Sequence record: PQ818763
Direction: 5' to 3' (one strand)
DNA from: Shigella phage ShigP1
Length of the DNA stretch: 64,000 bases
In this document: piece by piece, positions 34,230 through 63,511 of the stretch
How positions within the stretch are numbered: the first letter of the stretch is position 1
How the letters are laid out: every line of letters begins with the position of its first letter
Position numbers and translations under genes: made by a program
Notes under the pieces: model-generated
The model's database searches: none
What the model was told of the DNA's origin: nothing
Seen by the model: the letters and a program-made list of their open reading frames with translations, nothing else

Positions 34230-34235
34230 TAAAAG

Positions 34236-34272
34236 AAAAGCCCTCAAGGAGAAATCCAAGAGGGCTTTATTA
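34236..34272. terminator. Bidirectional terminator between the convergent late (+) and early/middle (-) modules
   Basis: agccctc ... gagggct stem flanked by an A-run upstream and a T-run downstream. Confidence 0.6.
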
Positions 34273-34273
34273 T

Positions 34274-34639
34274 TTAACGTCCCCAATCTTTATTGGTAAA
34301 CGTTTTTAGTCGGTGACAGTTCGCACAAAGTGTTTGAAGATTTTCTTCTCTATTATCTTTGTGATTACCGTTTATGTGATCTACATCTAATTGACAAGTG
34401 TGTTTAGGGACGAAACCACACAACTCGCACACTTCTTTCTTAAAGTCTACGTATGGCGATTTATATCGTCTAGTACGTTCTCTGTGTGCATCCATATTCT
34501 CGTACTCTCTTTTATTGCAAGGAGAGCACAAAGGTGCAAACTTTCCACCACCTTTTGATTTCTGAGGGTTCTTGTTGCACAAAACACAAAGACCACGAAC
34601 ATTAGATGGCTCTGTTTTTCTAAACCTCCATGTTCCCAT
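34274..34639 (-). CDS. HNH endonuclease
   Basis: CELCGFVPKHTCQLDVDHINGNHKDNREENLQTLCANCHRLKT is a canonical HNH motif. Confidence 0.8.
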   Translation of the reverse strand: MGTWRFRKTEPSNVRGLCVLCNKNPQKSKGGGKFAPLCSPCNKREYENMDAHRERTRRYKSPYVDFKKEVCELCGFVPKHTCQLDVDHINGNHKDNREENLQTLCANCHRLKTFTNKDWGR

Positions 34640-34695
34640 TAATCCTCCTTGAAGGGGCTTTATTTGTTTCTATATGCTAGAATCCATCAAATTCA

Positions 34696-34956
34696 TCATA
34701 CATCCCAATTTTCTTCTTCGAAGTCAATCATATAGACCTCCCAATCATCTGCAAATAAATCACCCTGAGATGGAATCCATCCGGGCTGAATAATACCTTG
34801 AGCGTTCTTTAAGACCAAATATGGGGCAAAACGGTATTGACCTACAGTATCAACTTTATCACCTACTTTAAAAATGAACTGGTTTGCACCATTCCAACCA
34901 GAGCGGGTAATCTTTTTCCCTTCTTTTACTTTCTCAAGTGCTAAACTAAAATCCAT
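34696..34956 (-). CDS. DUF2829-like small protein (Tad2-like anti-Thoeris candidate)
   Basis: 86 aa; MDFSLALEKVKEGKKITRSGWNGANQFIF... fits the N-terminal pattern I recall for DUF2829 phage proteins (from memory, not searched). Confidence 0.45.
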   Translation of the reverse strand: MDFSLALEKVKEGKKITRSGWNGANQFIFKVGDKVDTVGQYRFAPYLVLKNAQGIIQPGWIPSQGDLFADDWEVYMIDFEEENWDV

Positions 34957-34964
34957 TTGTTCTC

Positions 34965-35192
34965 CTAGATTAAATCATAATACTTAATAATATCAGAGAG
35001 TTTGAACTCTCGAATCTCATCCTTCTCTACATCAATCGCTGTCATAATCCAACAAGGTTTGCCACCGTTATGAAAACGGGAGCTAGCAACGGAGGTTCGG
35101 AGTGGAATAACGGACCGGTCAGCGATCTCACCTCTCCAATTGCGATAGCGAAAGCGAAGCACTTGTTGCGTAGATTTTTGATCATCACTCAT
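34965..35192 (-). CDS. Hypothetical protein (start moved to internal Met)
   Basis: Internal ATG at 35192 chosen because the track ORF overlaps the upstream gene by about 150 nt. Confidence 0.35.
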   Translation of the reverse strand: MSDDQKSTQQVLRFRYRNWRGEIADRSVIPLRTSVASSRFHNGGKPCWIMTAIDVEKDEIREFKLSDIIKYYDLI

Positions 35193-35586
35193 TTCCTTTT
35201 TTGAATTGTTTTCTTGCATCATTTTCCATCTTAGTTTTAATCTTATGACAAGGGTCTTTACACAGAACCTGAAAACCTTCTTTCTCACATAGAGCACGAG
35301 AGATGATTTCATCCCAAGTTGCTTCATGGTCAAGAGGAACTATAGGCTCTATGTGGTCAATAGCCATATCCTTTACAGGGTGGTCAGAACCACACATGGC
35401 ACACTTGAAGTGCATTGCCAGTCTACCTGTCTTTGGATTAATCTTCTGCTCTGTCTTGGCGTCTGCTAGTGCATCGAACATGGGCTTCCACTTTCTAGTC
35501 AGAGAACGAATCCCGGACTTGATGAAAGAGTTGTAACGAGCTTCAGTCCACATTCCACTACAGCGAGTCTTCTCAGACTTCGCCAT
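35185..35586 (-). CDS. HNH-family nuclease
   Basis: HFKCAMCGSDHPVKDMAIDHIEPI...LCKDPCHKIK shows CxxC...DH...CxxCH spacing. Confidence 0.55.
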   Translation of the reverse strand: MAKSEKTRCSGMWTEARYNSFIKSGIRSLTRKWKPMFDALADAKTEQKINPKTGRLAMHFKCAMCGSDHPVKDMAIDHIEPIVPLDHEATWDEIISRALCEKEGFQVLCKDPCHKIKTKMENDARKQFKKGNE

Positions 35587-35752
35587 AATCAGCTTCTTCC
35601 CAAACTCGTTTGTTTACACGATGGCTCACCTTACCCTCACGAGGAATACGACCAGTTCTCTGATCAAACAGTTGATGTTTAATCTTTTGGTCTTTACGAG
35701 ATTCACGATTGGAGGAGTTTTCATCATATGAACGATAATCAAATTTACCCAT
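35573..35752 (-). CDS. Small basic protein, about 59 aa, absent from the ORF track
   Basis: Manual translation MGKFDYRSYDENSSNRESRK...; its stop overlaps the start of the downstream gene. Confidence 0.3.
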   Translation of the reverse strand: MGKFDYRSYDENSSNRESRKDQKIKHQLFDQRTGRIPREGKVSHRVNKRVWEEADYGEV

Positions 35753-35765
35753 TATAATATCCTTA

Positions 35766-36584
35766 TTACCAAGATTTATCTAACCATGTCCAGTCGAACA
35801 GGTCTTCCGGAGTCTGACCAACAAAGAGCAGCCGAGCATTCTCAAGCATCTTCTCTTCATCTTCAGTATCGAACTTCTTATAATATTCCATTCGTACTAT
35901 ATGATACATGGTCCACTTATCTGTAACACCAGCCAATAGTTTAGCTGCTGCTTTCTTCCCTATTCCTTGACGTCGAAGCTGGAGCTTACCACCCCACATA
36001 ACTTCTTCACGTTCTCCACATCCGGGGATATTATCTGTACCATCTCCAATCAACATTTGATAGAAGAAGTTTTGCCATGAAACTAAATCAGATACATAGT
36101 GAGGAGGAACCTCTTTCTGTCTTTCTCCACAAGCCCAACGGTAGTGCCATCCGGGAGTTATCAACAAATCCTTGTCTCTAGTACAGATGATAGTGTTTTT
36201 ATCCCTACGTTGCCTTTCAGCTAGTGCATCATCAGCCTCTCTCCCAAATACATCTATGTATTCATATTTACCTTTAATGTAATCACCAACATTTTGCCAG
36301 TGAAAAGGTCTTTCTCCGGGAGGTCTGTTTGCCTTGTAGTCTTGCTGCTTAGCAACATCAAAACGGAAATTACCACCTTCGCTGAAGTAGAACACAACCT
36401 TACTACAACCTGATCGAGCTATGATTGTATCAATCTTATACTGAAGTCGTTCAATCATGAAATTGTAATCAACTGGAACACGTCCTGTGTCAAGAAAGGG
36501 ATGCTCCTGAGTAAGAGCACCCACTTCATATCGAAGAACGTCAGCATCCACTATAGCTACCTCAGGGAGCTTAACGTCTTCCAT
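35766..36584 (-). CDS. 5'-3' exonuclease / flap endonuclease (FEN, PIN-like)
   Basis: IVDADVLRY, YKANRP, GREADDALA, DKDLL and GDGTDNIPG motifs typical of 5'-3' exonucleases. Confidence 0.8.
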   Translation of the reverse strand: MEDVKLPEVAIVDADVLRYEVGALTQEHPFLDTGRVPVDYNFMIERLQYKIDTIIARSGCSKVVFYFSEGGNFRFDVAKQQDYKANRPPGERPFHWQNVGDYIKGKYEYIDVFGREADDALAERQRRDKNTIICTRDKDLLITPGWHYRWACGERQKEVPPHYVSDLVSWQNFFYQMLIGDGTDNIPGCGEREEVMWGGKLQLRRQGIGKKAAAKLLAGVTDKWTMYHIVRMEYYKKFDTEDEEKMLENARLLFVGQTPEDLFDWTWLDKSW

Positions 36585-36585
36585 A

Positions 36586-37112
36586 TTATTCTCCTAACAG
36601 CTTACGGATTTCATTGCGGAAGTTATCATACTCTTCAGGGTATTCAAACCCACACTCAAGAAGGGCGTAGTGAACAACCTTCAACAAATCCTGAACCTTA
36701 TTCTTATCTTTGTGTCGATAAGCGTATTTGATCATATTGGTTTGTTGGAAGTTCAACTGAGGGTTTGCATGGTAAAACTCAACAGGCTGAATGATTTTAG
36801 ATTCAGGGTTATAGTGTGCACCCCCAACCATAGTGTCTAAAGCTGGACTTCTTTTGCTGGTTTGTTCAGTTGTAGGCTTAAAACTGACTACAGGAACAGA
36901 GGAATAAATTGGATACTCTTCACCTACTGGCGGCTTTACTATCAACCTTTTCATTGCATACCGAATTTCTGTATCAGCAGAACACGAAGAGATTTCTTCA
37001 ACAGATTTACGATAGCTATCAATAACTGCACGTAACATAGAAATCGTTCTGGTCTTATCTCTTAATTTGTGACACAGATCAGCAATCTCTTCTTCCATAA
37101 GGTTAAACTTAT

Positions 37113-37122
<10 letters not shown>
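36586..37122 (-). CDS. Hypothetical protein
   Basis: 178 aa; no motif confidently recognised. Confidence 0.4.
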
Positions 37123-38608
<1,486 letters not shown>

Positions 38609-38609
<1 letters not shown>

Positions 38610-38869
38610 TATTCTATTCCACGCTCTTTCAGAGCTTCTAACAATCCATTGTGATTGGCAGCACATTCTGTGTACTGGTCCTGATACCACTCCAACGTAG
38701 TGGCTAATGCTTTTCCTTGAGCACTTTCTAAAAGAGGCAGGTCAACCCTACATTCAGCTTTTAGGTTTGTTGGTAAGGGCATTGATTGCCTGCTGTTGTC
38801 GCTCGTTGAACAAGCTGACATACTCATCACTAGCGCAGACATTATAAAAAACTGGTTTAGTTTTCTCAT
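38609..38869 (-). CDS. Outer-membrane spanin (o-spanin lipoprotein) candidate, overlapping the i-spanin out of frame
   Basis: MRKLNQFFIMSALVMSMSAC has a lipoprotein-like signal and Cys; embedded in the 3' part of the neighbouring gene in another frame (Rz/Rz1-type arrangement). Confidence 0.45.
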
Positions 38870-39104
38870 AATGCATCTCTTTATAAACGGTTTCCGTGTT
38901 CTTCTTCCAGTTAGATAAACCGGTAAGAACTCTCTGAGCAACTTCATCAGCTGCTCTACTTCTTTCAATCTCTAACTCTTGCTGGTGCTTCTCTTTGTCC
39001 AGATTACTGCTGTCTGTTTGATATTCGTTAAACTTCATACCACCAAAGAATACAAGAGCTGAGAAAACGATAAACCCTAAGTTATCACTTAATGTGTTTT
39101 GCAT
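38754..39104 (-). CDS. Inner-membrane spanin (i-spanin) candidate
   Basis: N-terminal TM helix LGFIVFSALVFFGG followed by a charged helical domain; start at ATG 39104 (SD GGAGA) because the track start lies within the upstream terminator. Confidence 0.5.
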   Translation of the reverse strand: MQNTLSDNLGFIVFSALVFFGGMKFNEYQTDSSNLDKEKHQQELEIERSRAADEVAQRVLTGLSNWKKNTETVYKEMHYEKTKPVFYNVCASDEYVSLFNERQQQAINALTNKPKS

Positions 39105-39117
39105 GTTGTCTCCAACG

Positions 39118-39146
39118 AAAAAAGCCACCCGGAGGTGGCTAAGCTA
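39118..39146 (-). terminator. Rho-independent terminator (agccacc / ggtggct with T-run on the minus strand)
   Basis: Perfect 7-bp stem followed by TTTTTT on the minus strand, downstream of the SSB-like gene. Confidence 0.6.
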
Positions 39147-39161
39147 TAACAAGGAGAGTTA

Positions 39162-39908
39162 TTAGAATGGGCTATCGTTGTCGTCTTCGTAAGTAGAAGC
39201 AGGCTCTTTATCAATCGTAGGGATTGAAGGAGTAGCTTCTTTCTGCTCTGTTTCAGAAGCACGAGTAATTTCACGACCAGCCAGAGGCATGTTCTTAGCG
39301 TCATTAGCTTGAGTAAGCAGGTTGCGCTGGAACGGGAACATCAGTTGATAGGATGCTACGTTCTCATCGGTTTCAGCATACGGTTCGAAGAATACCAGAG
39401 GACTACGAGCTTCACCAACTGCTGCACGATATTTGGTTGGGATTGGAGAAATGGTCTTGATGGAGTTTTTAACTTCACCAGATTTGTTAGTATAAGAGTT
39501 AACCAGAATGTTAACAGGCTGACCTAACAGAACATCCTTGAACCAAGACAGATCACCTTTCAGTGCTTGAATACTTGGGTCAATCATTTTGCAAAGATCA
39601 AGAATACCAGAGTTCTTAGCTCGTGGGTTTACATCATAGCTCTTGAACTGGCAAGCTGGACGTGGTTCTAATGCCTTACCATCGGAATCTTTACCAGTAG
39701 CATCAACACCAATCAGCTCGAAAGCTAAATCCATACGGAAAGCCGGATTCTTAGGAGTTACTGCTTTGGTCTTCGGGTCAATCCAAGGGTCACGATTGTG
39801 AACACCCAAACCTACTACACGAACGATACGTGCTTCGTATTCACCATCAGGGATTACATCGTAGTTGGATTTACGGGAAGCAGTTGCGATAGTTGGAATC
39901 ATAGACAT
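39162..39908 (-). CDS. Single-stranded DNA-binding protein candidate (acidic C-terminal tail ending in Phe)
   Basis: 248 aa; C-terminus ...TYEDDNDSPF resembles the acidic, aromatic-terminated tail of SSBs; located in the replication module. Confidence 0.45.
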   Translation of the reverse strand: MSMIPTIATASRKSNYDVIPDGEYEARIVRVVGLGVHNRDPWIDPKTKAVTPKNPAFRMDLAFELIGVDATGKDSDGKALEPRPACQFKSYDVNPRAKNSGILDLCKMIDPSIQALKGDLSWFKDVLLGQPVNILVNSYTNKSGEVKNSIKTISPIPTKYRAAVGEARSPLVFFEPYAETDENVASYQLMFPFQRNLLTQANDAKNMPLAGREITRASETEQKEATPSIPTIDKEPASTYEDDNDSPF

Positions 39909-40324
39909 ATTTTAATTTCCTTATTTAATTTGAAAGATTGTTGCTCTCTTTGAGCGGTTATGTATAGTATACATTACGCTTATACCGATAAGAGTACTAT
40001 ATAATATAAGTATCTTTGGTAGTAGATATAACACACTAGTAATGTATATATTGTATAGCTGATAAAGTTATTGCAGGCTTGTATATTGGGCAATTCACAG
40101 AATCCCTTGCAAGTACCGAAGGGCAGGAGCCACCTGCGAGATAAAAATAGAGAATTAAGGAATCCTTGATTTAGGTTGTAGGGACTCCTAGGGACTTTGA
40201 TTCTCTATTTAAAAGAATATTAATTACTTATTACCTAAATAATTAACTAACCTACTTAAACCAAATTCAAGAATAATAGATAAAAAGATTATTCCTAAGA
40301 AAGCTAAAAAGTAAAGGATATAAG
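39909..40324 (-). promoter_or_regulatory. ORF-free AT-rich region of 416 bp with an 11-bp inverted repeat and a short direct repeat; candidate promoter/operator or origin
   Basis: aaatagagaat (40145-40155) and attctctattt (40200-40210) are reverse complements; tagggact is duplicated between them. Confidence 0.35.
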
Positions 40325-40552
40325 TTACCATTCAAGTAAACCTTTAAAGTTAGTTTGTTCTACTATCCTCTGATAACGAAGATTAGAATCAGCTTGTTTC
40401 TTTAACATCTCATTATATTGATCTCTGATAGAGTCTTTATAAACTACAGGTTCTTTAAATACTGAGATCTTCTTTTTCTCAGAGTTAGATAGTACATCCA
40501 TCACAGGTAAGATCTCCGAGAAGGGACAGTGATAACAAACGAGACTGCTCAT
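40325..40552 (-). CDS. Small hypothetical protein
   Basis: ORF of 75 aa; no motif recognised. Confidence 0.3.
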   Translation of the reverse strand: MSSLVCYHCPFSEILPVMDVLSNSEKKKISVFKEPVVYKDSIRDQYNEMLKKQADSNLRYQRIVEQTNFKGLLEW

Positions 40553-40700
40553 CGCTATACAGTTGATCTATCTCTTCTTTAAGTTTTGCTAACTCAATGA
40601 AATTGATAAGTTGACCATGTTCAAGACAGTCTGTTTTTAGTATAAATAAAACTTCAGCGTTTGTTGAATCTTCACTTGAGTATTTATCAATGTATTCCAT
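40485..40700 (-). CDS. Small hypothetical protein
   Basis: ORF of 71 aa; no motif recognised. Confidence 0.3.
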   Translation of the reverse strand: MEYIDKYSSEDSTNAEVLFILKTDCLEHGQLINFIELAKLKEEIDQLYSDEQSRLLSLSLLGDLTCDGCTI

Positions 40701-40702
40701 TT

Positions 40703-40924
40703 TTATGCCACATCTCCTTGTTTGTTGTTAATAACATCCAGTGCTGTGTAAGGTTTACCTGTTCCTAAGTATTCCAGAACTGGAGGATTCTTCTTTTCTT
40801 CAGCGACTACATAAGGTGTGATCTTTCCTTTCAGTACAGCCTGAGATGCTTTAGCACTATCTTCAGATGTGTGAATAGTAGTAAGCCCTTTCTTCCCAAT
40901 TCTATAAGTGTGAACCCAAATCAT
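40703..40924 (-). CDS. Small hypothetical protein
   Basis: ORF of 73 aa; its start overlaps the upstream stop (ATGA). Confidence 0.35.
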   Translation of the reverse strand: MIWVHTYRIGKKGLTTIHTSEDSAKASQAVLKGKITPYVVAEEKKNPPVLEYLGTGKPYTALDVINNKQGDVA

Positions 40925-41088
40925 ACTTCTTCCTCATATTCCCAATTTCTTTCATAATACCCAGAGTTGTAGTTTAGGGCGCACTTCTCGGCCTCTTCTA
41001 TGTCGTCGGTGTTTAGGATATTCACCCACCCTCCAGCTTCATCAAAACCTTCTTCTTCCTCGTTAATCCATACACTATATTTCTTCAT
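40921..41088 (-). CDS. Small acidic protein, about 55 aa, absent from the ORF track
   Basis: Manual translation MKKYSVWINEEEEGFDEAGGW...; ATGA overlaps at both ends. Confidence 0.35.
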   Translation of the reverse strand: MKKYSVWINEEEEGFDEAGGWVNILNTDDIEEAEKCALNYNSGYYERNWEYEEEV

Positions 41089-41495
41089 CGAATCACCAAA
41101 GGCTCTTCAGAGTACACAGGAGCGGCTATTTCTACAGGAGGTGCTGCCCTAAGGTCATTAAGTCTTACGCCCTTCAGCATACCGTCTAGGTGGTCCTTTT
41201 TGGGGATTCCAACAGGGAAGTCGTCAATCCAGATATCGACGAAGAAACCTAGCTGTCGACAGACCTCATCCTTCTGCACACCATTACAAAAGATAATAGG
41301 AATCTGCAAACACTCTGCATCAATCTTAATGTCGTGGTTATCGTACCCATTAGGCTCTGCAAAGCGATAAGTTACAAAGCGTACATCGTAGCCCTTTTCT
41401 TGCATTAATGCCACCACAGAGCGCCACAGCTTTTTATCTGAGGTGTAAGTGTCATCGTAATCTAAACCAATATTCATGTCAAATCCTTTAGACAA
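41085..41495 (-). CDS. HAD-superfamily phosphatase candidate (nucleotidase-like)
   Basis: N-terminal IGLDYDDTYT fits HAD motif I (DxDxT). Confidence 0.4.
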   Translation of the reverse strand: MSKGFDMNIGLDYDDTYTSDKKLWRSVVALMQEKGYDVRFVTYRFAEPNGYDNHDIKIDAECLQIPIIFCNGVQKDEVCRQLGFFVDIWIDDFPVGIPKKDHLDGMLKGVRLNDLRAAPPVEIAAPVYSEEPLVIR

Positions 41496-41523
41496 GAAAA
41501 GCCGCCCGAAGGCAGCTTCTTAT
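41496..41523 (-). terminator. Hairpin with T-run on the minus strand
   Basis: gctgcc-UUCG-ggcggc followed by TTTTCTT on the minus strand; one mismatch in the stem. Confidence 0.4.
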
Positions 41524-41700
41524 TTAACTGTTCACTTTAGCTTCAAGTGTTTCGTTTTCAATACTCAAGTCAATCACTACACCAGTAAGCTCAACGACTG
41601 CTTGGCGAAGGGCATCTTTACCCATAGAGTGTACTTGAGATAAGAAGAAAGCTTTACCTTCTTCAGTGGATAGGGTTTCTTTTAATTCAGAAGCAGTCAT
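41524..41700 (-). CDS. Small hypothetical protein, 58 aa, absent from the ORF track
   Basis: Manual translation MTASELKETLSTEEGKAFFLSQVHSMGKDALRQ... Confidence 0.3.
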   Translation of the reverse strand: MTASELKETLSTEEGKAFFLSQVHSMGKDALRQAVVELTGVVIDLSIENETLEAKVNS

Positions 41701-41709
41701 TGATATTCC

Positions 41710-41904
41710 TTATGTTATGTTATAAATTCGCATGATTGTACCACCATTGGCTTCAATAGCAGCAACCATTTGGTTTCGTTCTTCATCCGTGTAAACTAAC
41801 ACACTTCTAAACTCGCCTGTTGCATCAGTATAAAGGATGTTATATTTTGGAGGCGGTTTACGGTAAATACCTTCCATCACTCTTTCTCCTCTCGTTCTTT
41901 CCAC
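41710..41904 (-). CDS. Small hypothetical protein
   Basis: 64-aa ORF; the true start may be the internal Met at about 41877. Confidence 0.3.
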   Translation of the reverse strand: MERTRGERVMEGIYRKPPPKYNILYTDATGEFRSVLVYTDEERNQMVAAIEANGGTIMRIYNIT

Positions 41905-42060
41905 AGTTCGGCTAGCTCTAGATAGAACTCAGCCTCATCAAGACGACCTTGTTCATTACAGATGGCGCTCTGACGATAACACCAATCCGATGGCATCTCT
42001 TCCACTTCAATCTCCTTGTTACGAACCAATCAATAAGAATAGTTCATTCGTCTTATTTAT

Positions 42061-42255
42061 TCACTCTACCAATGCAGGTACTTCTATCATTTTAACTGTG
42101 AATGTCTTGTTTGGAAACTTTCGAACTAGCTCTGCTGCTTTGGTTATTGCTAAGTTCTCTGTCTCAAAGATACACAGTTGACCATTTAACGCTACGAGAG
42201 TGGAGCCACCACTGAAGACGGCCCAAGATTCATAATAACCACGAACACTCATCAC
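42061..42255 (-). CDS. Small hypothetical protein
   Basis: ORF of 64 aa. Confidence 0.3.
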   Translation of the reverse strand: MMSVRGYYESWAVFSGGSTLVALNGQLCIFETENLAITKAAELVRKFPNKTFTVKMIEVPALVE

Positions 42256-42620
42256 TCAACCTCAATATTATATAGAGTTTTCAGTGTATCTTTAATCCAA
42301 GCACGTCGTTTTGGATTCTTATGATGTGCCCCGTTTTCCCTATCTCTAAAATATTGATCACATCCGAATGGGTATGTTGGGTCAAAAAACTTTTCTTGAT
42401 TAAACATATTCTTCATGTCGTCAATATCTAAATGCTTTGTGAAATAGTAATACCTCTTATAACAGCGAAAGTTGAAGCATAATCCTTGATCTTCACTAAA
42501 CCATTTTGGATAAATTCCAGTCTTAGCTATTTCATAATATTGGAGGAGGAAATCCTCCATCCCCCTCTCTTTAGCTAAACATCTCAATGTTCTGTAGATG
42601 ATATTGGTTTCTTTCATCAC
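42252..42620 (-). CDS. Hypothetical protein
   Basis: 122 aa, overlaps its neighbours by 4 nt. Confidence 0.4.
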   Translation of the reverse strand: MMKETNIIYRTLRCLAKERGMEDFLLQYYEIAKTGIYPKWFSEDQGLCFNFRCYKRYYYFTKHLDIDDMKNMFNQEKFFDPTYPFGCDQYFRDRENGAHHKNPKRRAWIKDTLKTLYNIEVE

Positions 42621-42625
42621 TCACC

Positions 42626-44470
42626 TTAGTGTGTATGCATCCAGTTAAGTCCAATCTGACAATCAGATGCCAGAGGACATTCCATATTCAGATACTCGCC
42701 AGCTTTCTTAACACAAAGCTCGGTGTGCTCTTTGAGTTTCTGTACATCATTACGGTTTACTGAGAATTGACCTTCATCGTGCATATCAATTACCTTAGCA
42801 CAACGAACCTTATCTTTCTCAATCCACTTGTTAAGGAACATCATAGCATATTTCATAACAACAGCACCAGCACATTGCAGGAGTGTGTTAAGGGCTTTAT
42901 GAACCATAACCTTACCAGTGGCATCCCGTCTCATTGTAATCTTACGACCATCAACTCCAATCAAGTATCCTTGAGCAGCTTTCTCTGTCATACGATCAAT
43001 GAGGATTGCAATACATGGGTTCTCTGCTAAGAAACGTGCTCGCATCACTGAACCTTCGTCAGCCCCACCACCTACAATTGAACCAAGCTTAGCATCACCA
43101 GCACCATAGTTGAATGCGTAGATAAACGTCTTAGCGTTGTCACGAGTAGGAAGACCAGCAAGTTTCTGGTTGTGGGAGTGGATATCACCTTCAAGGAGAA
43201 TATCACGATACATAATAGCAGAAGCTAAACCACGTTCTGCCAGAGCTTTCTTAGCTGGGTTGTTCTCTTCAATTGCCTCAGCAAGCATATCCCTACACTC
43301 TTTAATGAGGTAGTGAGCGAGCATACGAAGTTCAAGTCCAGAACCATCATACCCTAAGAATACTTCTTTACCAGCGGGTATGTAATATTTGTAAGCACCT
43401 ATAGGTTTATCTTTCTTCCCCGGCTTACCTTTCTCGTAAATTACGTTAGTACCTTTTCGTATATAACAACCATCAGGAACAACGTTAGTAATAACGAAAG
43501 GACGAGAGTGATCACTGTCTGAGTTATAGTCAGACTCAAACAGACTGCGACACTCGTGACCAAACAAACCACGGGAGGGAATATTAACCACGATACGATG
43601 TTTGAATCGAAAAGTCGGCGTAGCGCAGCTGTTAGCTTCTGCCGAAAGTTTACCATCTTCGCGTTCCTTTGCTATGAGTCCACTGATAAGACCTAGCCTG
43701 TGAGCCGCTACAACGCGTCTCTTAAGCAAACTTCCAACACTCCCTAGTTCACCCCCTAGCCCTTCTTCAAGAGTCTCCTCGAGGTTTGTAGGAGCTGTAG
43801 GCCACTTGTTTGATGTGGCTAATGCTTTCTTAATCTCATCAAACGTTACAGGATTACGGCGATTAGGGTTCAATCCCAAACCAAACACGTAAGCTTTCAT
43901 GTAGTTCTTAGTTTTAAACCTGAAGTGCTTTTCTAAGAACTTCTTAATATCAGCGTCAACCATCTCGGCTGTCTGCTTTTGCTTAGCATTGCCTCGCATC
44001 CAAGCAGTATACCATGCTTGGTATGTTCCATACTTTCTCATATCTTTCTTAATTTCGAAAGTATTCCAAGGCTTCTTAGATACGTTAAACTCTGGAGGAA
44101 GAAAGCCCTCATCCATAAGAGCTTCTTTAACTCGTGCATCCTTCGATGGGTCAAAGTCTACATATTCGACACAGGTGAAAGCTCCACCAATGTCTTCTCT
44201 CTTCAGTCCAACCCTATCACAATAAGCTTGAGGCCACTTCTGCAAAGCCCCTGACTTCTTAAATGGCTTCATGTAAGTAGAGCCATCTAATCTCATCTTA
44301 GGTAAGAGAGGAATCAACTCTCTGTCAATATTAACAATAATCTCTTTAAGGAGGTGAACATACCACCGAGCATTTCTTCGGTTGAAACTCACTCCGTGCT
44401 TTGCTTGCTTAGAGATTATATCAGCGACAGTCATCTCTGTCAAAAATGGAAGAGCGTCCGGGTTGCTCAC
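42626..44470 (-). CDS. DNA polymerase, family A, polymerase domain only
   Basis: Motif A LGYDGSGLELRMLAHY, motif B RDNAKTFIYAFNYGAG, motif C VIDMHDEGQF; no exonuclease motifs in this ORF. Confidence 0.85.
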   Translation of the reverse strand: MSNPDALPFLTEMTVADIISKQAKHGVSFNRRNARWYVHLLKEIIVNIDRELIPLLPKMRLDGSTYMKPFKKSGALQKWPQAYCDRVGLKREDIGGAFTCVEYVDFDPSKDARVKEALMDEGFLPPEFNVSKKPWNTFEIKKDMRKYGTYQAWYTAWMRGNAKQKQTAEMVDADIKKFLEKHFRFKTKNYMKAYVFGLGLNPNRRNPVTFDEIKKALATSNKWPTAPTNLEETLEEGLGGELGSVGSLLKRRVVAAHRLGLISGLIAKEREDGKLSAEANSCATPTFRFKHRIVVNIPSRGLFGHECRSLFESDYNSDSDHSRPFVITNVVPDGCYIRKGTNVIYEKGKPGKKDKPIGAYKYYIPAGKEVFLGYDGSGLELRMLAHYLIKECRDMLAEAIEENNPAKKALAERGLASAIMYRDILLEGDIHSHNQKLAGLPTRDNAKTFIYAFNYGAGDAKLGSIVGGGADEGSVMRARFLAENPCIAILIDRMTEKAAQGYLIGVDGRKITMRRDATGKVMVHKALNTLLQCAGAVVMKYAMMFLNKWIEKDKVRCAKVIDMHDEGQFSVNRNDVQKLKEHTELCVKKAGEYLNMECPLASDCQIGLNWMHTH

Positions 44471-44486
44471 TTTATACTCCTTTAAA

Positions 44487-44900
44487 TTATTGGTAAAGTA
44501 AATCTGTAAATGCTTGGTTATCTTCTACTACATCCAAGGATGTGGAATCAACAGCATATGTTCTCATTGCTGCATTTGTTTGTGCCCAAGTAGGTGGAGA
44601 ATAAGAAGACCTAACCTCACGAGGCTGCTCTCTGACTAGATGGGCCACAACCCTCTGATTAGCAACTTCTTCTCTTTCTCTAATAGCCCTCTGGATATAG
44701 GCCAGCTTCATGCCCCAAGCTTCTTCAAACTCTTGAGGATGCTTATCACTGATAACCACATACTGACGTTCAGGAATACCAGAGCGAATCTCTGATAATA
44801 ACTCATGGAATAAATCTAGTTCATGTTCAGTGAGATTCATTTCAATATCATCCCACTTAAGAACTAGGAAACGGTTTTGGTGTCTAGCTGGTAATGGCAT
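44487..44900 (-). CDS. Hypothetical protein
   Basis: ORF of 137 aa. Confidence 0.4.
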   Translation of the reverse strand: MPLPARHQNRFLVLKWDDIEMNLTEHELDLFHELLSEIRSGIPERQYVVISDKHPQEFEEAWGMKLAYIQRAIREREEVANQRVVAHLVREQPREVRSSYSPPTWAQTNAAMRTYAVDSTSLDVVEDNQAFTDLLYQ

Positions 44901-44903
44901 TCT

Positions 44904-45059
44904 ACTCCACCTCTACTTCAATGTAAGTTCTCTCGCCAACGTCATCTTTTAAGACCCATGCCTTGGCATCTTCTTCAGACTTAAAAGCTTTCACAACGCT
45001 GTATCCCCCTTCCCATTCATCACCGACCCAGCGCTGTCCTACGTAAATGTATTCTTTCA
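44904..45059 (-). CDS. Small hypothetical protein, 51 aa, absent from the ORF track
   Basis: Manual translation MKEYIYVGQRWVGDEWEGGYSVVKAFKSEEDAKAW... Confidence 0.3.
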
Positions 45060-45063
45060 TCAC

Positions 45064-45348
45064 TCAACCTTTCGGGAATGGCATTAAAAACTCTACAGCA
45101 GATTTGATTTCGTTATTGATTCGTGAATCACGGTAAGAGATAAACTTACCTTTGCTGTCACGTAACATCACATGGGTTCTGGCTGTTTTGTGAGGAAGCA
45201 AAGTGATACTGGTTGGTATAGTATCAATTCCTACAGAGCATGAATTAATAGTCTTACTCTCTACTAGCAGATAAGACCAAGTACGCGGTTTCTGCTCCGG
45301 ACGGTTGGGGTATGTGTCTCGAATCTGTACCATAGCTAACTTATTCAT
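45064..45348 (-). CDS. Small protein, paralogue 1 of a tandem pair
   Basis: C-terminal region KTARTHVMLRDSKGKFISY...AVEFLMPFPKG is shared with the adjacent gene. Confidence 0.45.
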   Translation of the reverse strand: MNKLAMVQIRDTYPNRPEQKPRTWSYLLVESKTINSCSVGIDTIPTSITLLPHKTARTHVMLRDSKGKFISYRDSRINNEIKSAVEFLMPFPKG

Positions 45349-45349
45349 G

Positions 45350-45604
45350 TTAAACTCCTTTAGGGAATGGGATGAGATTTTCTACTGCAACACGGAAAGA
45401 TTTTTCTACATCTTTGTTTTTATAAGAAATGAATTTACCATCAGCACCACGAAGGATTACATTAGTGCGAGCTGTTTTTGGGTTAATCTCAATCATCCGT
45501 TCGATGATCTTGTTTGATTTGTTGTGGTGGTTAGTGAAAGTCCACTTAACAATCTTGCCATCTCTGGTTACATCAAAAATATTTACGATTTTTACAATAG
45601 ACAT
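45350..45604 (-). CDS. Small protein, paralogue 2 of a tandem pair
   Basis: KTARTNVILRGADGKFISY...AVENLIPFPKG; same motif order as 45064-45348. Confidence 0.45.
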   Translation of the reverse strand: MSIVKIVNIFDVTRDGKIVKWTFTNHHNKSNKIIERMIEINPKTARTNVILRGADGKFISYKNKDVEKSFRVAVENLIPFPKGV

Positions 45605-45631
45605 ATTTATTACCTAAGAAGTTTATTTTGG

Positions 45632-45670
45632 TTTATATAAAAGAAAAGGCCACCCATTTGGGTAGCCTCA
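45632..45670 (-). terminator. Hairpin with T-run on the minus strand
   Basis: ggctacccaaatgggtggcc followed by TTTTCTTTT on the minus strand. Confidence 0.5.
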
Positions 45671-45672
45671 TA

Positions 45673-45990
45673 TTACGATGAGCTTAAAGCCCCTTTGCGT
45701 GCTCCAGCTGCTTTTCCAGCTCGATCACCACTTTTGCCGCCGTTTGAACGGTTTGAGCTGACTGATTCAACACGTAAGTTGCTTGACGCATTAGAGCCTC
45801 CAGACTTGACAGCTCGTTTGTGTCCAACATCTTTACCTCTGACAGCAGCTTTTCCATCGCGCTTTTCAACGATGCGACGTGCACGGTGGCGCTGAGCATC
45901 TCCGCTCTTGCTCCCAACGCCTGTTTCACCACGGGCAATTGCGGTACGTCTTTCTTGTGCATAATCTCTCTTTCCTACATGGTCTGCCAT
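45673..45990 (-). CDS. Basic Gly/Lys/Arg/Ser-rich low-complexity protein (KGG-repeat-like or nucleic-acid-binding)
   Basis: Frame chosen over two overlapping shadow ORFs by codon periodicity (G-first, T/A-third codons) and a strong SD (AAGGAG, 6 nt spacing). Confidence 0.4.
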   Translation of the reverse strand: MADHVGKRDYAQERRTAIARGETGVGSKSGDAQRHRARRIVEKRDGKAAVRGKDVGHKRAVKSGGSNASSNLRVESVSSNRSNGGKSGDRAGKAAGARKGALSSS

Positions 45991-46046
45991 TTAGAACTCC
46001 TTAATATATCAGTGTACACTAAGGAGTATACATTATAAGTTACTGT

Positions 46047-46784
46047 TTAAGCTTTCTTTTCCATTGCTTTAACAATCGCCTTACAGAAACCAGAACGAAC
46101 AATATCATCTGATTCACCATCTACAATCTCAGCAAACTCATACAGATCGTGTTCATCAATAAAGTTAGTAGCCCAAGTTAGACCACTCTCTCGACCACGC
46201 ATATCATGCTGGTTTGTATCACCCATACAGAACAATTGAGAGGTTTCTCCCAATCGAGTCATGATGGAGAAGGCTTCATCCTTAGTTGTATTCTGGAACT
46301 CATCTACGATAACAATGGCATCATTGAAAGAGCGACCACGGAGATATTCCAGAGGTACAAATTCAATGTTACCATTTCCGATTTGGCATTCATAGAATCC
46401 CTTACCGTATCGCTGAGTAATAACATCAATGATAGGCATCAGGTATGGTTCAAACTTCTCACGCATTCCTCCCGGAAGTAACCCAAGAGAGTTACCCATG
46501 CCAACTGAAGGTCGACTCAGGATGATCTTCTGAATCTTACCACTCTTCAGTGCATCGATAACCGTGGAAGTGATTACAAAGGTCTTACCACAGCCCGCAG
46601 GAGCGTCTGTGAACACAACTTGTTTAGTCTTAATAGCATTGAGTAGCTCAGACTGAAACTGGTTCTGAGGGACTACAGGCTTTGCTAAAACCACCTCTTC
46701 ATACTCTCGCTTACCTTTACGAGTAACAAGTGCTTCCCGACGAAGGTCTTTCCGTGATTCTTTCCGTGATTGACGACGACTCAT
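46047..46784 (-). CDS. phoH: PhoH-like ATPase
   Basis: Walker A DAPAGCGKTF and the overall PhoH pattern (IVDEFQN, MGDTNQHD). Confidence 0.8.
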   Translation of the reverse strand: MSRRQSRKESRKDLRREALVTRKGKREYEEVVLAKPVVPQNQFQSELLNAIKTKQVVFTDAPAGCGKTFVITSTVIDALKSGKIQKIILSRPSVGMGNSLGLLPGGMREKFEPYLMPIIDVITQRYGKGFYECQIGNGNIEFVPLEYLRGRSFNDAIVIVDEFQNTTKDEAFSIMTRLGETSQLFCMGDTNQHDMRGRESGLTWATNFIDEHDLYEFAEIVDGESDDIVRSGFCKAIVKAMEKKA

Positions 46785-46966
46785 TTACGCTCTCCAATTT
46801 CTTCGTAATGACATTCAGTAGTTAAACAATCTTTACAGATTGCTGTGTAAACCCTGACGTTAGTAAATCGTTTGTTCTTCCCTTTGGTTGGAGAGCCTTT
46901 AGCAAGCTCTCTGATAACCTTGTTACTTAAGTGAAGGTTTGTCCCTTCACATCTAGAGCACTTCAT
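46781..46966 (-). CDS. Small zinc-ribbon protein
   Basis: CSRCEG ... CKDCLTTEC (two CxxC pairs) in 61 aa. Confidence 0.4.
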   Translation of the reverse strand: MKCSRCEGTNLHLSNKVIRELAKGSPTKGKNKRFTNVRVYTAICKDCLTTECHYEEIGERK

Positions 46967-47282
46967 GGTTCATATCTTTATGAAGTCTATAAACAGCTGT
47001 CGCCATACAAGCAACAGCTTCATTATGCGGGAGATGCATACCTGTAGAACCATCCCAATCCCTGAACTCATTGTCAAAGACTCCGGTAGGCTCTTGATAC
47101 AAGGCTTGCAACTCCACTAGATCATTAGCAACTTGTTGCCATTTATCATCAGACCAGATAGGGTCATCCAACCAGTAATACAAATAGGAATGGATGATCA
47201 ATTGCCTTCTGTGCCGATTAATTACTTCAGCGGGACTTATCTCACTTCCATTTGAAGTCCTAAATGTATTACTGTCAATCAT
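46953..47282 (-). CDS. Hypothetical protein
   Basis: ORF of 109 aa. Confidence 0.4.
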   Translation of the reverse strand: MIDSNTFRTSNGSEISPAEVINRHRRQLIIHSYLYYWLDDPIWSDDKWQQVANDLVELQALYQEPTGVFDNEFRDWDGSTGMHLPHNEAVACMATAVYRLHKDMNHEVL

Positions 47283-47533
47283 TTCACAACCTTAAATTTG
47301 AATGTTGTTGGGTGATAATAATGCAACCTGTTGATGGTGTGCTTGATTTCAAGGTATGTCCTACAGGAGTGGCACATAACATGAGACAAACCAGTCACAG
47401 GATTGGGCTTAAAATTGATGATAGGCTTCTCTTTCTTACAGAAGCTACAGACTTTCTTTTCCATCTTTTCTCCAGTGGTCAACGAATTGCTGAAACACTT
47501 TATGGTCGAATGTGAAACCTCGAGCAATCCCAC
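47279..47533 (-). CDS. Small Cys-rich protein
   Basis: CSFCKK ... CHSCRTY motifs. Confidence 0.35.
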   Translation of the reverse strand: MGLLEVSHSTIKCFSNSLTTGEKMEKKVCSFCKKEKPIINFKPNPVTGLSHVMCHSCRTYLEIKHTINRLHYYHPTTFKFKVVK

Positions 47534-47678
47534 ACTCTACGAAAGTAGAAGGCATATAGTCTACATCATCTTTAGATGTATGACCATAAACTTGAATAAG
47601 CTTTTTAATCTTATCCTTCTCTCTTCGAGGAAGCATTCTAAATGCCTCCTGAATATCTGTAATATGTTTGATTTTCAT
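47445..47678 (-). CDS. Small hypothetical protein
   Basis: ORF of 77 aa. Confidence 0.3.
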   Translation of the reverse strand: MKIKHITDIQEAFRMLPRREKDKIKKLIQVYGHTSKDDVDYMPSTFVECGIARGFTFDHKVFQQFVDHWRKDGKESL

Positions 47679-47694
47679 CAGAAAGCCTCTGATA

Positions 47695-48351
47695 TTAACT
47701 CTCCAAAGTTTTCTTCAGAGCTGCCCACGAGATTGGGTAGAGTTTAGCCATCTCTTCATCTAGAGATTTAGCAAACACTCGAACTTCATATTGAGCGTGA
47801 GAGGAGAGTCGCTGACGACACAACTCAAACCAGCCGTACAAAGAACCGGTCCACACCCACTCAGTGATCATCCCCTGAGGAAGAACAAATCGAGCTTGCT
47901 CTGGTGCAATAAATTCAATCAACTTGTCATATGCTGCTAGAGAAGCTTCATATGAATCGTTAATCAGCATTAATGCTTCAGCTCGCTCTCCGTCGATGAG
48001 TTGAACCCCTGAACCTGCATGGAGGTCCGAAGGTCTCGCAAAAATCTCTTTAGGGATGAAGACTTCAACTGCTCCATCTTTATACCGCCGGGACATTTCG
48101 TTCCACGAGAATCCAACCTGATGCTTCTGTAGTTGACGAGCGATTGCAATTGGAGCCTTACAACGAAAGGACACTTGTGGATGACGGAACGGAGTGCAGT
48201 GTTTCTCTCTAGCCAAGAAGTTAATCAGCCGAGTATCACGATCATTCAAATCACCCTCTCGTACAACACCAAAAGAAACTCTTGCAGCATTAACAACAGT
48301 TTTATCACTGCCCATAGCTTCAATCAATGTTGCTTGCAATTGTTCATTCAT
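47695..48351 (-). CDS. thyX: ThyX-family (flavin-dependent thymidylate synthase) homologue with a non-canonical active-site motif
   Basis: HCTPFRH, ARQL, SRRY, EQARFVLP and AQYEVR align with ThyX blocks, but the RHR signature reads KHQ (ARQLQKHQVGFS). Confidence 0.65.
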   Translation of the reverse strand: MNEQLQATLIEAMGSDKTVVNAARVSFGVVREGDLNDRDTRLINFLAREKHCTPFRHPQVSFRCKAPIAIARQLQKHQVGFSWNEMSRRYKDGAVEVFIPKEIFARPSDLHAGSGVQLIDGERAEALMLINDSYEASLAAYDKLIEFIAPEQARFVLPQGMITEWVWTGSLYGWFELCRQRLSSHAQYEVRVFAKSLDEEMAKLYPISWAALKKTLES

Positions 48352-48823
48352 ACTTCAACTTCTCCTTGTTATAAGCAATCTCTGCTTCTTCTGGAGTATG
48401 GAAAGTTCCTAAATGCTTAGTCTTTCCGTTAACTCCGATGATAGCTCTGAATTTTGTACCACTAGCCGTCTCTCTGATGTAAACACCCATTGGGAGTTTT
48501 CCAGCTTTTCCGGCTCTGTTGTATTGTTTTCTGTTATGACAGTTTGTAGATGGGTCAACATCTCTTAGGTTTTTAAGAGAGTCATCCAGTTTAATCTGGT
48601 TGATGTGATCAATCTCAAACTCAGGCATCTTTCCATAAGAGAAAAACCAAGCTAATCGACATGCTCTGTAAGATTTCCCTTCATAATAGATGTACCTGTA
48701 GCCTAATGTTGAGATACACCCAGCAATATTCCCTGATACTCTCCGACCTTTAGTGTTCTTCCACCTAAAGATTCCAGTATCAGGGTCATATGCTAGGTCT
48801 TCTTTTATCTTATCAGTTAACAC
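48344..48823 (-). CDS. HNH homing endonuclease with AP2 DNA-binding domain
   Basis: EIDHINQIKLDDSLKNLRDVDPSTNCHN (HNH_3) and GVYIRETASGTKFRAIIGVNGKTKHLGTFHTPEEAEIAY (AP2). Confidence 0.75.
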   Translation of the reverse strand: MLTDKIKEDLAYDPDTGIFRWKNTKGRRVSGNIAGCISTLGYRYIYYEGKSYRACRLAWFFSYGKMPEFEIDHINQIKLDDSLKNLRDVDPSTNCHNRKQYNRAGKAGKLPMGVYIRETASGTKFRAIIGVNGKTKHLGTFHTPEEAEIAYNKEKLKYE

Positions 48824-49088
48824 CTAAAGCTGTATCCAAAAATGCTTTCAGGTTTGCTTCGGTTTGCATACCAGAGAGGCTATAGTGTGCACCACTGTTA
48901 CGGTTAGGTACAACGAAAGCAGGGATGCTACGAACCCCGTACTTAACAGCTTGTTCACGACCATCACCTTCAAGGATGTTAATCTCTTCCACTTCTACAT
49001 CAAACTCCTTAACAACCTTCTCAAAGGTAGGAGCCATTGCTTTACATGGAGCACACTGATCGCTATAAAACTTAATTACTTTAGACAT
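48813..49088 (-). CDS. Thioredoxin-like protein (CAPC active site)
   Basis: FYSDQCAPCKAMAP and a cis-Pro region (SIPAF) in 91 aa. Confidence 0.7.
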   Translation of the reverse strand: MSKVIKFYSDQCAPCKAMAPTFEKVVKEFDVEVEEINILEGDGREQAVKYGVRSIPAFVVPNRNSGAHYSLSGMQTEANLKAFLDTALGVN

Positions 49089-49096
49089 GTAAATCC

Positions 49097-49277
49097 TTAT
49101 GCAGTCAGGAGGTGAAGCAGGAATGGGATAACAACAGCTACGATAACCATGACAGTTGATGCTGTTTGAATCTCACCTTTCTTATCAGGAGTTTCTTCAA
49201 TAAGCTTACCAGAAGCCCAATAAATACCACCACCAATAAAGATAGCCCAAATACCCCATACGATTGCTGATAACATA
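49097..49277 (-). CDS. Small two-TM membrane protein, 59 aa, absent from the ORF track
   Basis: Manual translation MLSAIVWGIWAIFIGGGIYWASGKLIEETPDKKGEIQTASTVMVIVAVVIPFLLHLLTA. Confidence 0.3.
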
Positions 49278-49337
49278 TATCTATATCCTTATAAATAAGT
49301 TCGCCCCACCTCGGGTTAGGAGACAGGGCGGAGGTTT

Positions 49338-49916
49338 TTAGTAAGACACGTCACCACTTGAATGGGACATGTTGCTCTTGACGAAGTAGCAATACTTGCC
49401 AAGACCTTCATTTATTTCTTGAAGCATACTCTGGTCAACTGGATAAGTGGCTAAATCGCCATCAAACTCATCCATCTTCTCAATAATACACATCAATGTC
49501 ATGCACATATCAGAGAGCATACCGTCCATGTCTAGATCAGCATTACCCTCTGAGAACCAAGCATGAGATAGGTAGTTAGCTGCTGTAGCGTCCACTTTAA
49601 CACAGTGGTAACGCATACGTTCAGCAATACGATCTCCTACTTGTCGTGCGTAATCTTCCAGCTCATCAAACATACCATGAACACCCTGAAATCCTGAACC
49701 AGAGACGTTCCAGTGGTAGTTTTTAGCTTTGATATGCAAGAGTTCCATGTTAGCTTGTAAGCAGCTCAGGATGTGTTCTAGGCTGTTTCCACTAATCATA
49801 CCTTGCATCGTTTCAAGGCGAGAGATTGATAGGTCGGACCGGTCTAACATATTGTAGCTGTCACGACCAATCTCAGGTAAATCAAAGACATTCTTATGCA
49901 TTTGGGTTTTCTCCAT
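49338..49916 (-). CDS. Dps-like ferritin-fold protein
   Basis: KNYHWNVSGSGFQGVHGMFDELEDY...DRIAERM aligns with the Dps ferroxidase-site region ([20 protein letters not shown]...AER in E. coli Dps, from memory). Confidence 0.65.
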   Translation of the reverse strand: MEKTQMHKNVFDLPEIGRDSYNMLDRSDLSISRLETMQGMISGNSLEHILSCLQANMELLHIKAKNYHWNVSGSGFQGVHGMFDELEDYARQVGDRIAERMRYHCVKVDATAANYLSHAWFSEGNADLDMDGMLSDMCMTLMCIIEKMDEFDGDLATYPVDQSMLQEINEGLGKYCYFVKSNMSHSSGDVSY

Positions 49917-59924: not shown

Positions 59925-60003
59925 TTTCTAATCCACCTGAAGGGTAAACCCTTTCATCTAATTAACCTTTAAATTGTGCCCCTTTATCAGAGGCACCCAT
60001 TGA

Positions 60004-61107: not shown

Positions 61108-61721
61108 AACGAATCCACCAACGTAATATTATAATTGCTAAGGTTTTCAGAGATGTGATGAAAATGCTCCAGAAGTCGCATCGGTTGTTGACCATAAGAG
61201 TCACGAGGTGCTTCCAGATCTACCTGACCTACCAGTGCACCTTTATAATGCACTTTACCATCTGTAGGATTGATGTAAATATAACGAGTAACCAATCCAT
61301 CAAATTCAGGATTGAACAGACTGTAAACCATTTCACCAGAGATCGAACGACCAATTCCCGGAGCGTTTCGAATCTTGTTACCCATCAAACCCTTCGCTCT
61401 CTGACGAACAGGGTTGATATGAGTCCAGCTTACAGTGTTACCGTTATGGAACAGATAACCAACATCAGGTGATTCAAGAATCAAGGTTGGGTCGAACACT
61501 GGAATATTCATCGTAGTGTTTCGGAGATTTCCATGCTCGTTCTTGTACCACTGCTCTACAACAAAATACAGAGCCTGTTCTGCTTCATGCGAGAAGTCAT
61601 CGCTGCGGAAGTTACCGCTCTGCTCAACACCAATCACAAAACACGGAAGGTTGATATTGCCTGCTCGTTTAGCAATCCATGTACCATTATAGTAATGAGA
61701 AAAATCAGCTACTAAGCTCAC
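61104..61721 (-). CDS. Hypothetical protein within the ligase cluster
   Basis: 205 aa; ATGA overlap with the downstream gene. Confidence 0.4.
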   Translation of the reverse strand: MSLVADFSHYYNGTWIAKRAGNINLPCFVIGVEQSGNFRSDDFSHEAEQALYFVVEQWYKNEHGNLRNTTMNIPVFDPTLILESPDVGYLFHNGNTVSWTHINPVRQRAKGLMGNKIRNAPGIGRSISGEMVYSLFNPEFDGLVTRYIYINPTDGKVHYKGALVGQVDLEAPRDSYGQQPMRLLEHFHHISENLSNYNITLVDSL

Positions 61722-61730
61722 GATAACCTC

Positions 61731-63501: not shown

Positions 63502-63511
63502 AACTAACCTT

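Follow-up and report, generated by a model that had tools for sequence, protein, structure and literature searches.

The window, the whole stretch of 64,000 nucleotides analysed here, is the DNA of a Kuravirus (Gordonclarkvirinae; phiEco32/SU10-like E. coli podophages), and the record closest to it is that of vB_EcoP_IMEP8, at about 95% identity. Rightward late and structural genes extend as far as 34229, and a leftward block, running from 63934 to 34274, encodes a sigma factor, a dNMP kinase and a 5'-3' exonuclease. A small gene for a Tad2-like protein is next to last in this leftward block (34274..63934) and is followed by an HNH endonuclease gene and the terminator at 34231..34268, such that the distal position proposed for it in the initial annotation is correct. 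The features of the locus are these:

34696..34956, minus strand: complete ORF for the Tad2-like protein, ATG start, 86 codons plus stop (ORF list, translation)
34735..34956, minus strand: Tad2-like/DUF2829 domain, residues 1-74 (PF11195, PDB sequence alignments, AlphaFold2, Foldseek, residue conservation)
34699..34734, minus strand: tail outside the domain, YMIDFEEENWDV, residues 75-86 (DNA alignments with L004, Bas88, L007 and Bas91)
34957..34967, minus strand: ribosome-binding region TAGGAGAACAA, immediately 5' of the ATG (sequence read directly)
about 34717..34964, minus strand: variable cassette (pairwise blastn, multiple alignment, annotated relatives)
34274..34639, minus strand: HNH endonuclease gene between the Tad2-like gene and the terminator (PF01844 E=8.8e-9; PHROG HNH families)
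34231..34268, minus strand: intrinsic terminator AAAGCCCUC...GAGGGCUUUUCUUUU, which closes the leftward unit and faces a convergent 1488-aa gene on the plus strand

The ORF at 34696..34956 is translated as MDFSLALEKVKEGKKITRSGWNGANQFIFKVGDKVDTVGQYRFAPYLVLKNAQGIIQPGWIPSQGDLFADDWEVYMIDFEEENWDV. The initial annotation had placed an 86-residue product at 34696-34956 without giving a strand; the reading frame is indeed there, ATG-initiated, 86 codons long and on the minus strand, and the N-terminal pattern that had been quoted for it (MDFS-LALE-VKEGKK-TRSGWNG) agrees with the translation. A Shine-Dalgarno sequence, TAGGAG, lies 5-10 nt 5' of the ATG and overlaps the stop codon (TAG) of the upstream WYL-like gene. 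Because the TAG in the ribosome-binding region is the stop of the WYL-like gene, the two genes probably undergo coupled translation. The terminator at 34231..34268 received no call in the terminator scan, given its long loop, and was established by folding instead (-19.2 kcal/mol, z = -4.84, with none of 200 shuffles as good). A sigma-70 promoter scan returned 10 sites, with 7.0 +/- 2.4 expected, and no promoter was read from it.

The protein almost certainly belongs to the Tad2 family (DUF2829, PF11195). This family call, made in the initial annotation, is upheld by the PF11195 profile, by matches to every solved Tad2, by the predicted fold and by conservation of the key ligand-contact residues. 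Pfam PF11195 (Tad2-like, formerly DUF2829) matches at E=1.7e-24, scoring 86.5 bits where the cutoff is 25, and residues 1-74 align with profile positions 1-72 of 73. PHROGs 1048 and 872, both labelled as of unknown function, match with E of about 1e-21 to 1e-23. A phmmer search of PDB sequences returned Tad2 proteins exclusively (E 2.5e-12 to 1.2e-10), namely SptTad2 8WJD, ModTad2 8V3E/9EIB, HgmTad2 (that is, AcrIIA7) 8KBI, SPO1 Gp34.65 8SME/8WJE and AcrIIA7 9KZR. NCBIfam holds no match for the Tad2-like protein or for its upstream neighbour. An exhaustive HMMER search of 1.84 billion representatives gave 3,349 related clusters at E<=1e-3, and the family statistics rest on this search; a word-indexed homolog search gave 4 close relatives only. 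The exact 86-residue sequence is absent from a 15-billion-protein collection and from every public collection searched.

The AlphaFold2 monomer model, built with 59 aligned sequences, has a pLDDT of 89 and a pTM of 0.75, with the last residues disordered. It consists of a helix (3-11), strands at 16-18, 27-31, 36-38, 41-43, 46-50 and 56-58, a second helix (64-68) and a final strand (72-74). When the model is compared with the PDB by Foldseek, the best 24 matches are all Tad2 structures at a probability of 1.00, and the next match has E=0.35; the TM scores to the Tad2 structures are 0.72-0.77 when normalised by the query and up to 0.88 when normalised by the target. AlphaFold2 and Foldseek thus agree on a Tad2 fold, with its N-terminal helix, its antiparallel beta-sheet and its short helix before the C-terminal strand, in which the alpha-2 helix of the strand2-strand3 loop is absent.

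The Tad2-like gene is an accessory cassette outside the kuravirus core. The cassette sequence is not shared with the closest relatives, IMEP8 and Bas91, where two very small ORFs of 53 and 35 codons, unrelated to it, stand in its place, and this alternative two-ORF cassette is present in 66 phage records. The 5' edge of the cassette lies directly after the upstream stop codon, and the 3' edge lies within the conserved end ...GAAAATTGGGATGTATGA / ...GAAGAAAATTGGGATGTATGA. By tblastn, a Tad2-like gene occupies the slot in only seven other distinct kuraviruses (Bas86, Bas87, Bas88, NC-B, TH43, E20-1 and EK010), where the homologs are 88-89 residues long, are 63-69% identical to the window protein, have a loop that is 13 residues longer and are annotated as 'hypothetical protein'. 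The short-loop form occurs elsewhere only in three metagenomic contigs with the same gene neighbourhood (P0001, 75 aa, 95% identity). This patchy distribution is typical of counter-defence genes, by analogy with tad2 in SPO1-like phages. The cassette DNA was found in none of 5,426 complete E. coli genomes, and so a prophage donor was not found among them. The GC content of the cassette, 0.386, is within one standard deviation of the window mean (0.422 +/- 0.036) and gives no compositional sign of recent foreign origin.

Immediately around the Tad2-like gene lie genes for two HNH endonucleases, for a 59-aa protein of unknown function and for a small protein with a faint WYL match. The gene was initially described as lying near other counter-defence candidates, and this is borne out only in part: the block also contains genes for a Macro-domain protein and a SLOG (YAcAr) protein, at a distance of 2-4 kb upstream, and none of the immediate neighbours is an established counter-defence gene. 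The HNH gene at 34274..34639 is present in the window and in IMEP8 and absent from Bas91 and Bas88. It has been inserted into the operon terminator, and a remnant of the left arm, AAAGCCCCTT, lies upstream of it (about 34640..34665) and now leads into AAGGAGGA, the ribosome-binding site of the HNH gene, which is itself followed by an intact terminator. The HNH gene belongs to the genomic context and not to the sponge. The WYL-like gene that immediately precedes the Tad2-like gene (34968..35222, minus strand, in an ORF that extends to 35333) has a sub-threshold WYL match (E=1.1e-3, 19.4 bits, cutoff 21.8) and belongs to phrog_3715, function unknown. It is conserved in all kuraviruses examined, and the faint WYL match recurs in the metagenomic relatives. 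The second HNH endonuclease (35185..35586, minus strand; phrog_3106, E=1.7e-39) is conserved in relatives, and its 3' end overlaps the WYL-like frame when this is extended to a TTG start and lies 34 nt from the likely ATG start of the WYL-like ORF.

The Macro-domain protein has 173 residues (38169..38690, minus strand; PF01661 E=1.3e-10) and falls in PHROG 335, which is labelled 'phosphatase'. In the PDB it is closest in sequence to 5M3I, 5M31/5M3E and 7OMU (E 1e-25 to 1e-27), which we take to be macrodomains of DarG antitoxins, and the gene is a candidate anti-DarT or ADP-ribose-removing counter-defence gene. The SLOG-family YAcAr protein has 130 residues (37113..37505, minus strand; PF10686 E=6.4e-7, 29.5 bits, cutoff 28.2), is annotated as 'GTP-binding domain' (phrog_289) in relatives and has no PDB sequence match. 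Type I ThsA senses its ligand with a SLOG fold, and a free-standing copy in a phage could therefore bind nucleotide signals or process them. Both genes are conserved in kuraviruses and are plausible as ADP-ribose-related counter-defence candidates.

The residues that bind the ligand in Tad2 are known from the SPO1 protein, in which the 1''-3' gcADPR pocket lies between protomers of a homotetramer and the contacts are made by W25, W73, N26 and D79; T78, I63 and T65 are close to the adenine, and waters are held by D67, H71 and S76 (10.1101/2023.05.01.538930). In HgmTad2, the mutants W21A/N22A and S90A/T92A/D93A were used to disable gcADPR binding (PMC10680739). The HMMER alignment indicates that the window protein keeps the primary contacts together with S76 (SPO1 W25 is W21, N26 is N22, W73 is W60, S76 is S63 and D79 is D66). 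The secondary contacts differ (I63 is L49, T65 is N51, D67 is Q53, H71 is Q57 and T78 is G65), and the states N51, Q53, Q57 and G65 differ from those of every solved Tad2. These secondary-contact states bear on specificity and do not define the family. Among the 139 nearest representative domains, the primary positions are nearly invariant (W21 in 137, N22 in 135, W60 in 137, S63 in 131 and D66 in all 139), as are D71 (137/139) and W72 (138/139). The unusual states are those of the majority in this neighbourhood (N51 in 89, Q53 in 97, Q57 in 80, Q64 in 79 and G65 in 82 of the 139), and by its sequence the protein is a member of a large 'KNAQG..QPGW.PSQGD' subgroup that has no solved structures.

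One experimentally verified protein shares much of this pocket. A homolog of 159 residues from a prophage of E. coli AIEC_UM149 is active against type I Thoeris (Yirmiya et al. preprint, Suppl. Table 12; 10.1101/2023.05.01.538930). Of the tested proteins it gives the strongest BLAST match (42% identity, 65.5 bits), and it reads ...LVLKNSQNRLATWVPSIGDLMAEDW, with N, Q and G as at N51, Q53 and G65 of the window protein. Because this verified type I inhibitor carries glycine at the position of T78, a glycine there is compatible, by analogy, with blocking of 3'cADPR signalling. The likeness extends to the host species, E. coli, and to the KN.Q...W.PS.GD pocket variant, with the 42% identity spanning the domain. 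The AIEC_UM149 homolog differs from the window protein in its 75-residue N-terminal extension, its longer central loop, its lack of the window protein's Q57 and Q64 and its place in a prophage rather than in a lytic podophage.

Other members of the family can be compared in the same way. SPO1 Tad2 (Gp34.65; PDB 8SME/8SMF/8SMG/8WJE), the founding Thoeris anti-defence 2 sponge, which binds 1''-3' gcADPR, resembles the window protein in Pfam domain, predicted fold, size (89 versus 86 residues) and the equivalents of W25/N26/W73/S76/D79, and it too is encoded by an accessory gene found in only some members of its phage group. The two proteins are only 37% identical, T65/D67/H71/T78 are replaced by N/Q/Q/G in the window protein, and the hosts differ (E. 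coli, not Bacillus). The loop of the window protein is 9 residues shorter than that of SPO1 Tad2, without the alpha-2 helix and the stacking of F44, and there is an extra 12-residue tail. The best Foldseek matches are to ModTad2/MoTad2 (PDB 8V3E, 9EIB; TM 0.73-0.77 query-normalised, 0.88 target-normalised), a His-ADPR and cUMP sponge that is 38% identical to the window protein and has the core residues in common. ModTad2 differs in its PSVSD motif, in a longer insertion after strand 2 that makes a second pocket and in being inactive against type I Thoeris. HgmTad2 (AcrIIA7; PDB 8KBI-8KBM) and SptTad2 (8WJD) are dual sponges for gcADPR and cyclic dinucleotides that have the gcADPR core (W21/N22, S..D) in common with the window protein; at 101-104 residues, they differ in having a cyclic-dinucleotide pocket, made by a long insertion between strands 2 and 5 which the window protein lacks. 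The Tad2-like genes of the seven kuraviruses share with the window gene the slot after the WYL-like gene at the end of the leftward unit, the flanks and the identical core ...NAQGI.QPGW.PSQGDLFADDWE. They differ in a longer loop, GGYEVEEALPGS.YEKADI.G, and in a normal stop after ...DDWEIL.

The core of the window protein is compact. The spacing from GWNG to W..S..D is 36 residues, compared with 40-49 in Bas88 and the tested homologs that were compared (SPO1, ModTad2, M. bastinii, R. callidus, Nitrosospira and E. coli UM149, a set that leaves out the 104-residue HgmTad2 and the 101-residue SptTad2), and its central loop is the shortest among these tested proteins. In SPO1 Tad2 the strand2-strand3 loop forms helix alpha-2, which is part of a V-shaped dimer interface (10.1101/2023.05.01.538930). 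The equivalent loop of the window protein is shortened and is modelled by AlphaFold2 as a short beta-hairpin. An M. bastinii homolog of 81 residues, also short-looped, is verified as active. The second pocket of HgmTad2 and SptTad2, for cGG or cGAMP, is built from the long insertion between strands 2 and 5 and includes R31, S47, F70 and N85 of HgmTad2 (PMC10680739). This insertion is missing in the window protein, and the alignments with HgmTad2 and SptTad2 break in two around it; a second, cyclic-dinucleotide pocket is therefore unlikely. Such a pocket was rejected for the window protein on the missing HgmTad2-type insertion and the 36-residue spacing.

The best explanation of the gene, and a probable one, is that it encodes a compact, single-domain Tad2 sponge that sequesters an ADP-ribose-derived signal made by TIR proteins, most probably 3'cADPR. 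The protein would be a product of the leftward, non-structural unit and, by analogy with the solved Tad2 proteins, would assemble as a homotetramer. Pockets at the protomer interfaces would be lined by W21/N22, from the loop after strand 1, and by W60/S63/D66, from the loop and helix before the last strand, and would bind and sequester, uncleaved, an ADP-ribose-derived alarm molecule from a host TIR-domain protein. The most probable ligand would be 3'cADPR (1''-3' gcADPR), the signal of type I Thoeris, such that ThsA, the effector, would stay inactive and infection could go ahead. This ligand is favoured because the primary contacts are conserved and because the E. coli relative is verified. 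Sponging of a signal, whatever its identity, is highly probable; that 3'cADPR is a ligand of this particular protein has roughly even chances, and the ligand cannot be assigned from sequence. We infer the oligomeric state, the ligand identity and the in vivo anti-Thoeris activity of the window protein by analogy.

A Tad2-fold sponge could instead have a target other than 3'cADPR, such as His-ADPR, N7-cADPR, cUMP/cCMP, a CBASS cyclic dinucleotide or an undescribed TIR signal, and this is rather unlikely. Tad2 homologs collectively inhibit CBASS, Pycsar and Thoeris types I, II and IV, with ligands that include 3'cADPR, His-ADPR, N7-cADPR, cUMP/cCMP and cyclic dinucleotides (PMC12393519). Their specificity varies and is not predictable from trees, which are unreliable for such short proteins, and individual sponges can be highly specific, as with MoTad2, which inhibits type II Thoeris and not type I (PMC12393519). 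Moreover, of 84 sponge homologs tested from the Acb2, Tad1 and Tad2 families taken together, 19 were inactive against all seven systems assayed (PMC12393519). To this breadth are added the N51/Q53/Q57/G65 pocket variant, for which there is no solved structure, and phmmer scores that do not tell binders of the type I signal from those of the type II signal (48.8 versus 45.1-50.2 bits). Against another target, the closest tested relative, AIEC_UM149, which has N/Q/G in common with the window protein, inhibits type I Thoeris; the HgmTad2-type insertion for cyclic dinucleotides is long, whereas the window core is the shortest of the proteins compared; and the cUMP pocket of MoTad2 lies at the same kind of interface. 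In a more specific form, which must be considered improbable, the compact 'KNAQG...QPGW.PSQGD' pocket would recognise a TIR- or ADPR-derived signal other than 3'cADPR, possibly one undescribed in Enterobacteria, perhaps alongside the Macro and SLOG proteins. If a distinct ligand is indeed bound, the Tad2-like protein and the conserved kuravirus Macro-domain (DarG-like) and SLOG proteins might form a multi-layer toolkit against ADP-ribose-based immunity.

The C-terminus of the window protein departs from that of its relatives. An insertion of 1 nt at about 34732-34733 (window GAGGTCTATATGA versus GAGATCT-TATGA) removes the TGA stop of the closest relatives and joins the Tad2-like frame to an 11-codon mini-ORF, adding YMIDFEEENWDV. 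P0001 and Bas88 end in ...DDWEIL*, and their TGA overlaps the ATG of the mini-ORF MIDFEEENWDV*. The mini-ORF is what remains, at the 3' end, of the small gene that fills the slot in Bas91, where gp21 ends in ...SEENWDV*. The AlphaFold2 pLDDT is below 50 at residues 81-83 of the tail. The initial annotation had counted the whole Trp-rich acidic C-terminus as characteristic of DUF2829; this applies only up to residue 74, since ...GDLFADDWEV is the family motif, and residues 75-86 are a frameshift fusion. A second, independent read-through to the same NWDV* end, with different indels, is found in the metagenomic relative L007/P0003 (99 aa; Logan SRR21291490 contig, 560..680), and the junction region seems to be indel-prone. 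Extensions of 10-30 residues at the C-terminus are common among family members and, together with the read-through in L007, suggest that the tail is probably tolerated. The 1-nt insertion may also be a sequencing error.

That the gene is a decaying or neutral copy, in which the tail from the 1-nt insertion and the shortened central loop impair tetramer formation or ligand binding, is very improbable. It would fit with a fusion that is unique to the window genome, the closest relatives stopping at ...DDWEIL*, and with the missing dimer-helix loop of SPO1 Tad2. All of the invariant family residues are intact, however, and the domain is modelled with confidence. P0001, an independent relative from metagenomic data (95% identity), has the same short loop and stops normally, and loops as short or shorter are found in 45 of the 139 neighbours. 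Frequent 10-30-residue extensions and the independent read-through in L007 argue likewise against decay.

An anti-CRISPR function, like that of AcrIIA7, a DUF2829 protein originally described as inhibiting Cas9, could be suggested by the common Pfam domain and by the sequence matches to AcrIIA7 entries 8kbi and 9kzr. Against it, E. coli to our knowledge has no type II-A CRISPR-Cas. This reading was rejected as not credible for the window protein, given that the AcrIIA7 label is irreproducible: in the hands of Li et al., neither AcrIIA7/HgmTad2 nor other Tad2 homologs gave any inhibition of SpyCas9 (PMC10680739).

With a Tad2 sponge as the preferred reading, the gene leaves the understanding of the Tad2 family unchanged, and adds lytic E. 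coli podophages to the putative carriers of Tad2-type sponges. Kuravirus is a phage group in which the family had not been discussed earlier, and no paper was found in the literature that ties Kuravirus, Gordonclarkvirinae or phiEco32 to Thoeris, Tad2 or DUF2829. The kuravirus slot forms a series, with about 66 phages that carry two tiny ORFs, seven that carry a long-loop Tad2 and the window, which carries a minimal short-loop Tad2 with a tail. With this series it could be examined whether Thoeris-type signalling restricts kuravirus host range, which bears on phage-therapy cocktails. The window protein is among the smallest Tad2 cores and has an uncharacterised pocket variant, and is therefore a convenient candidate for structural work on specificity. 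At the other extreme of size, two proteins from the representative search, P0006 (2877 aa) and P0022 (2004 aa), have 9-13 separate Tad2-like domain matches each, indicating tandem DUF2829 arrays in some genomes.
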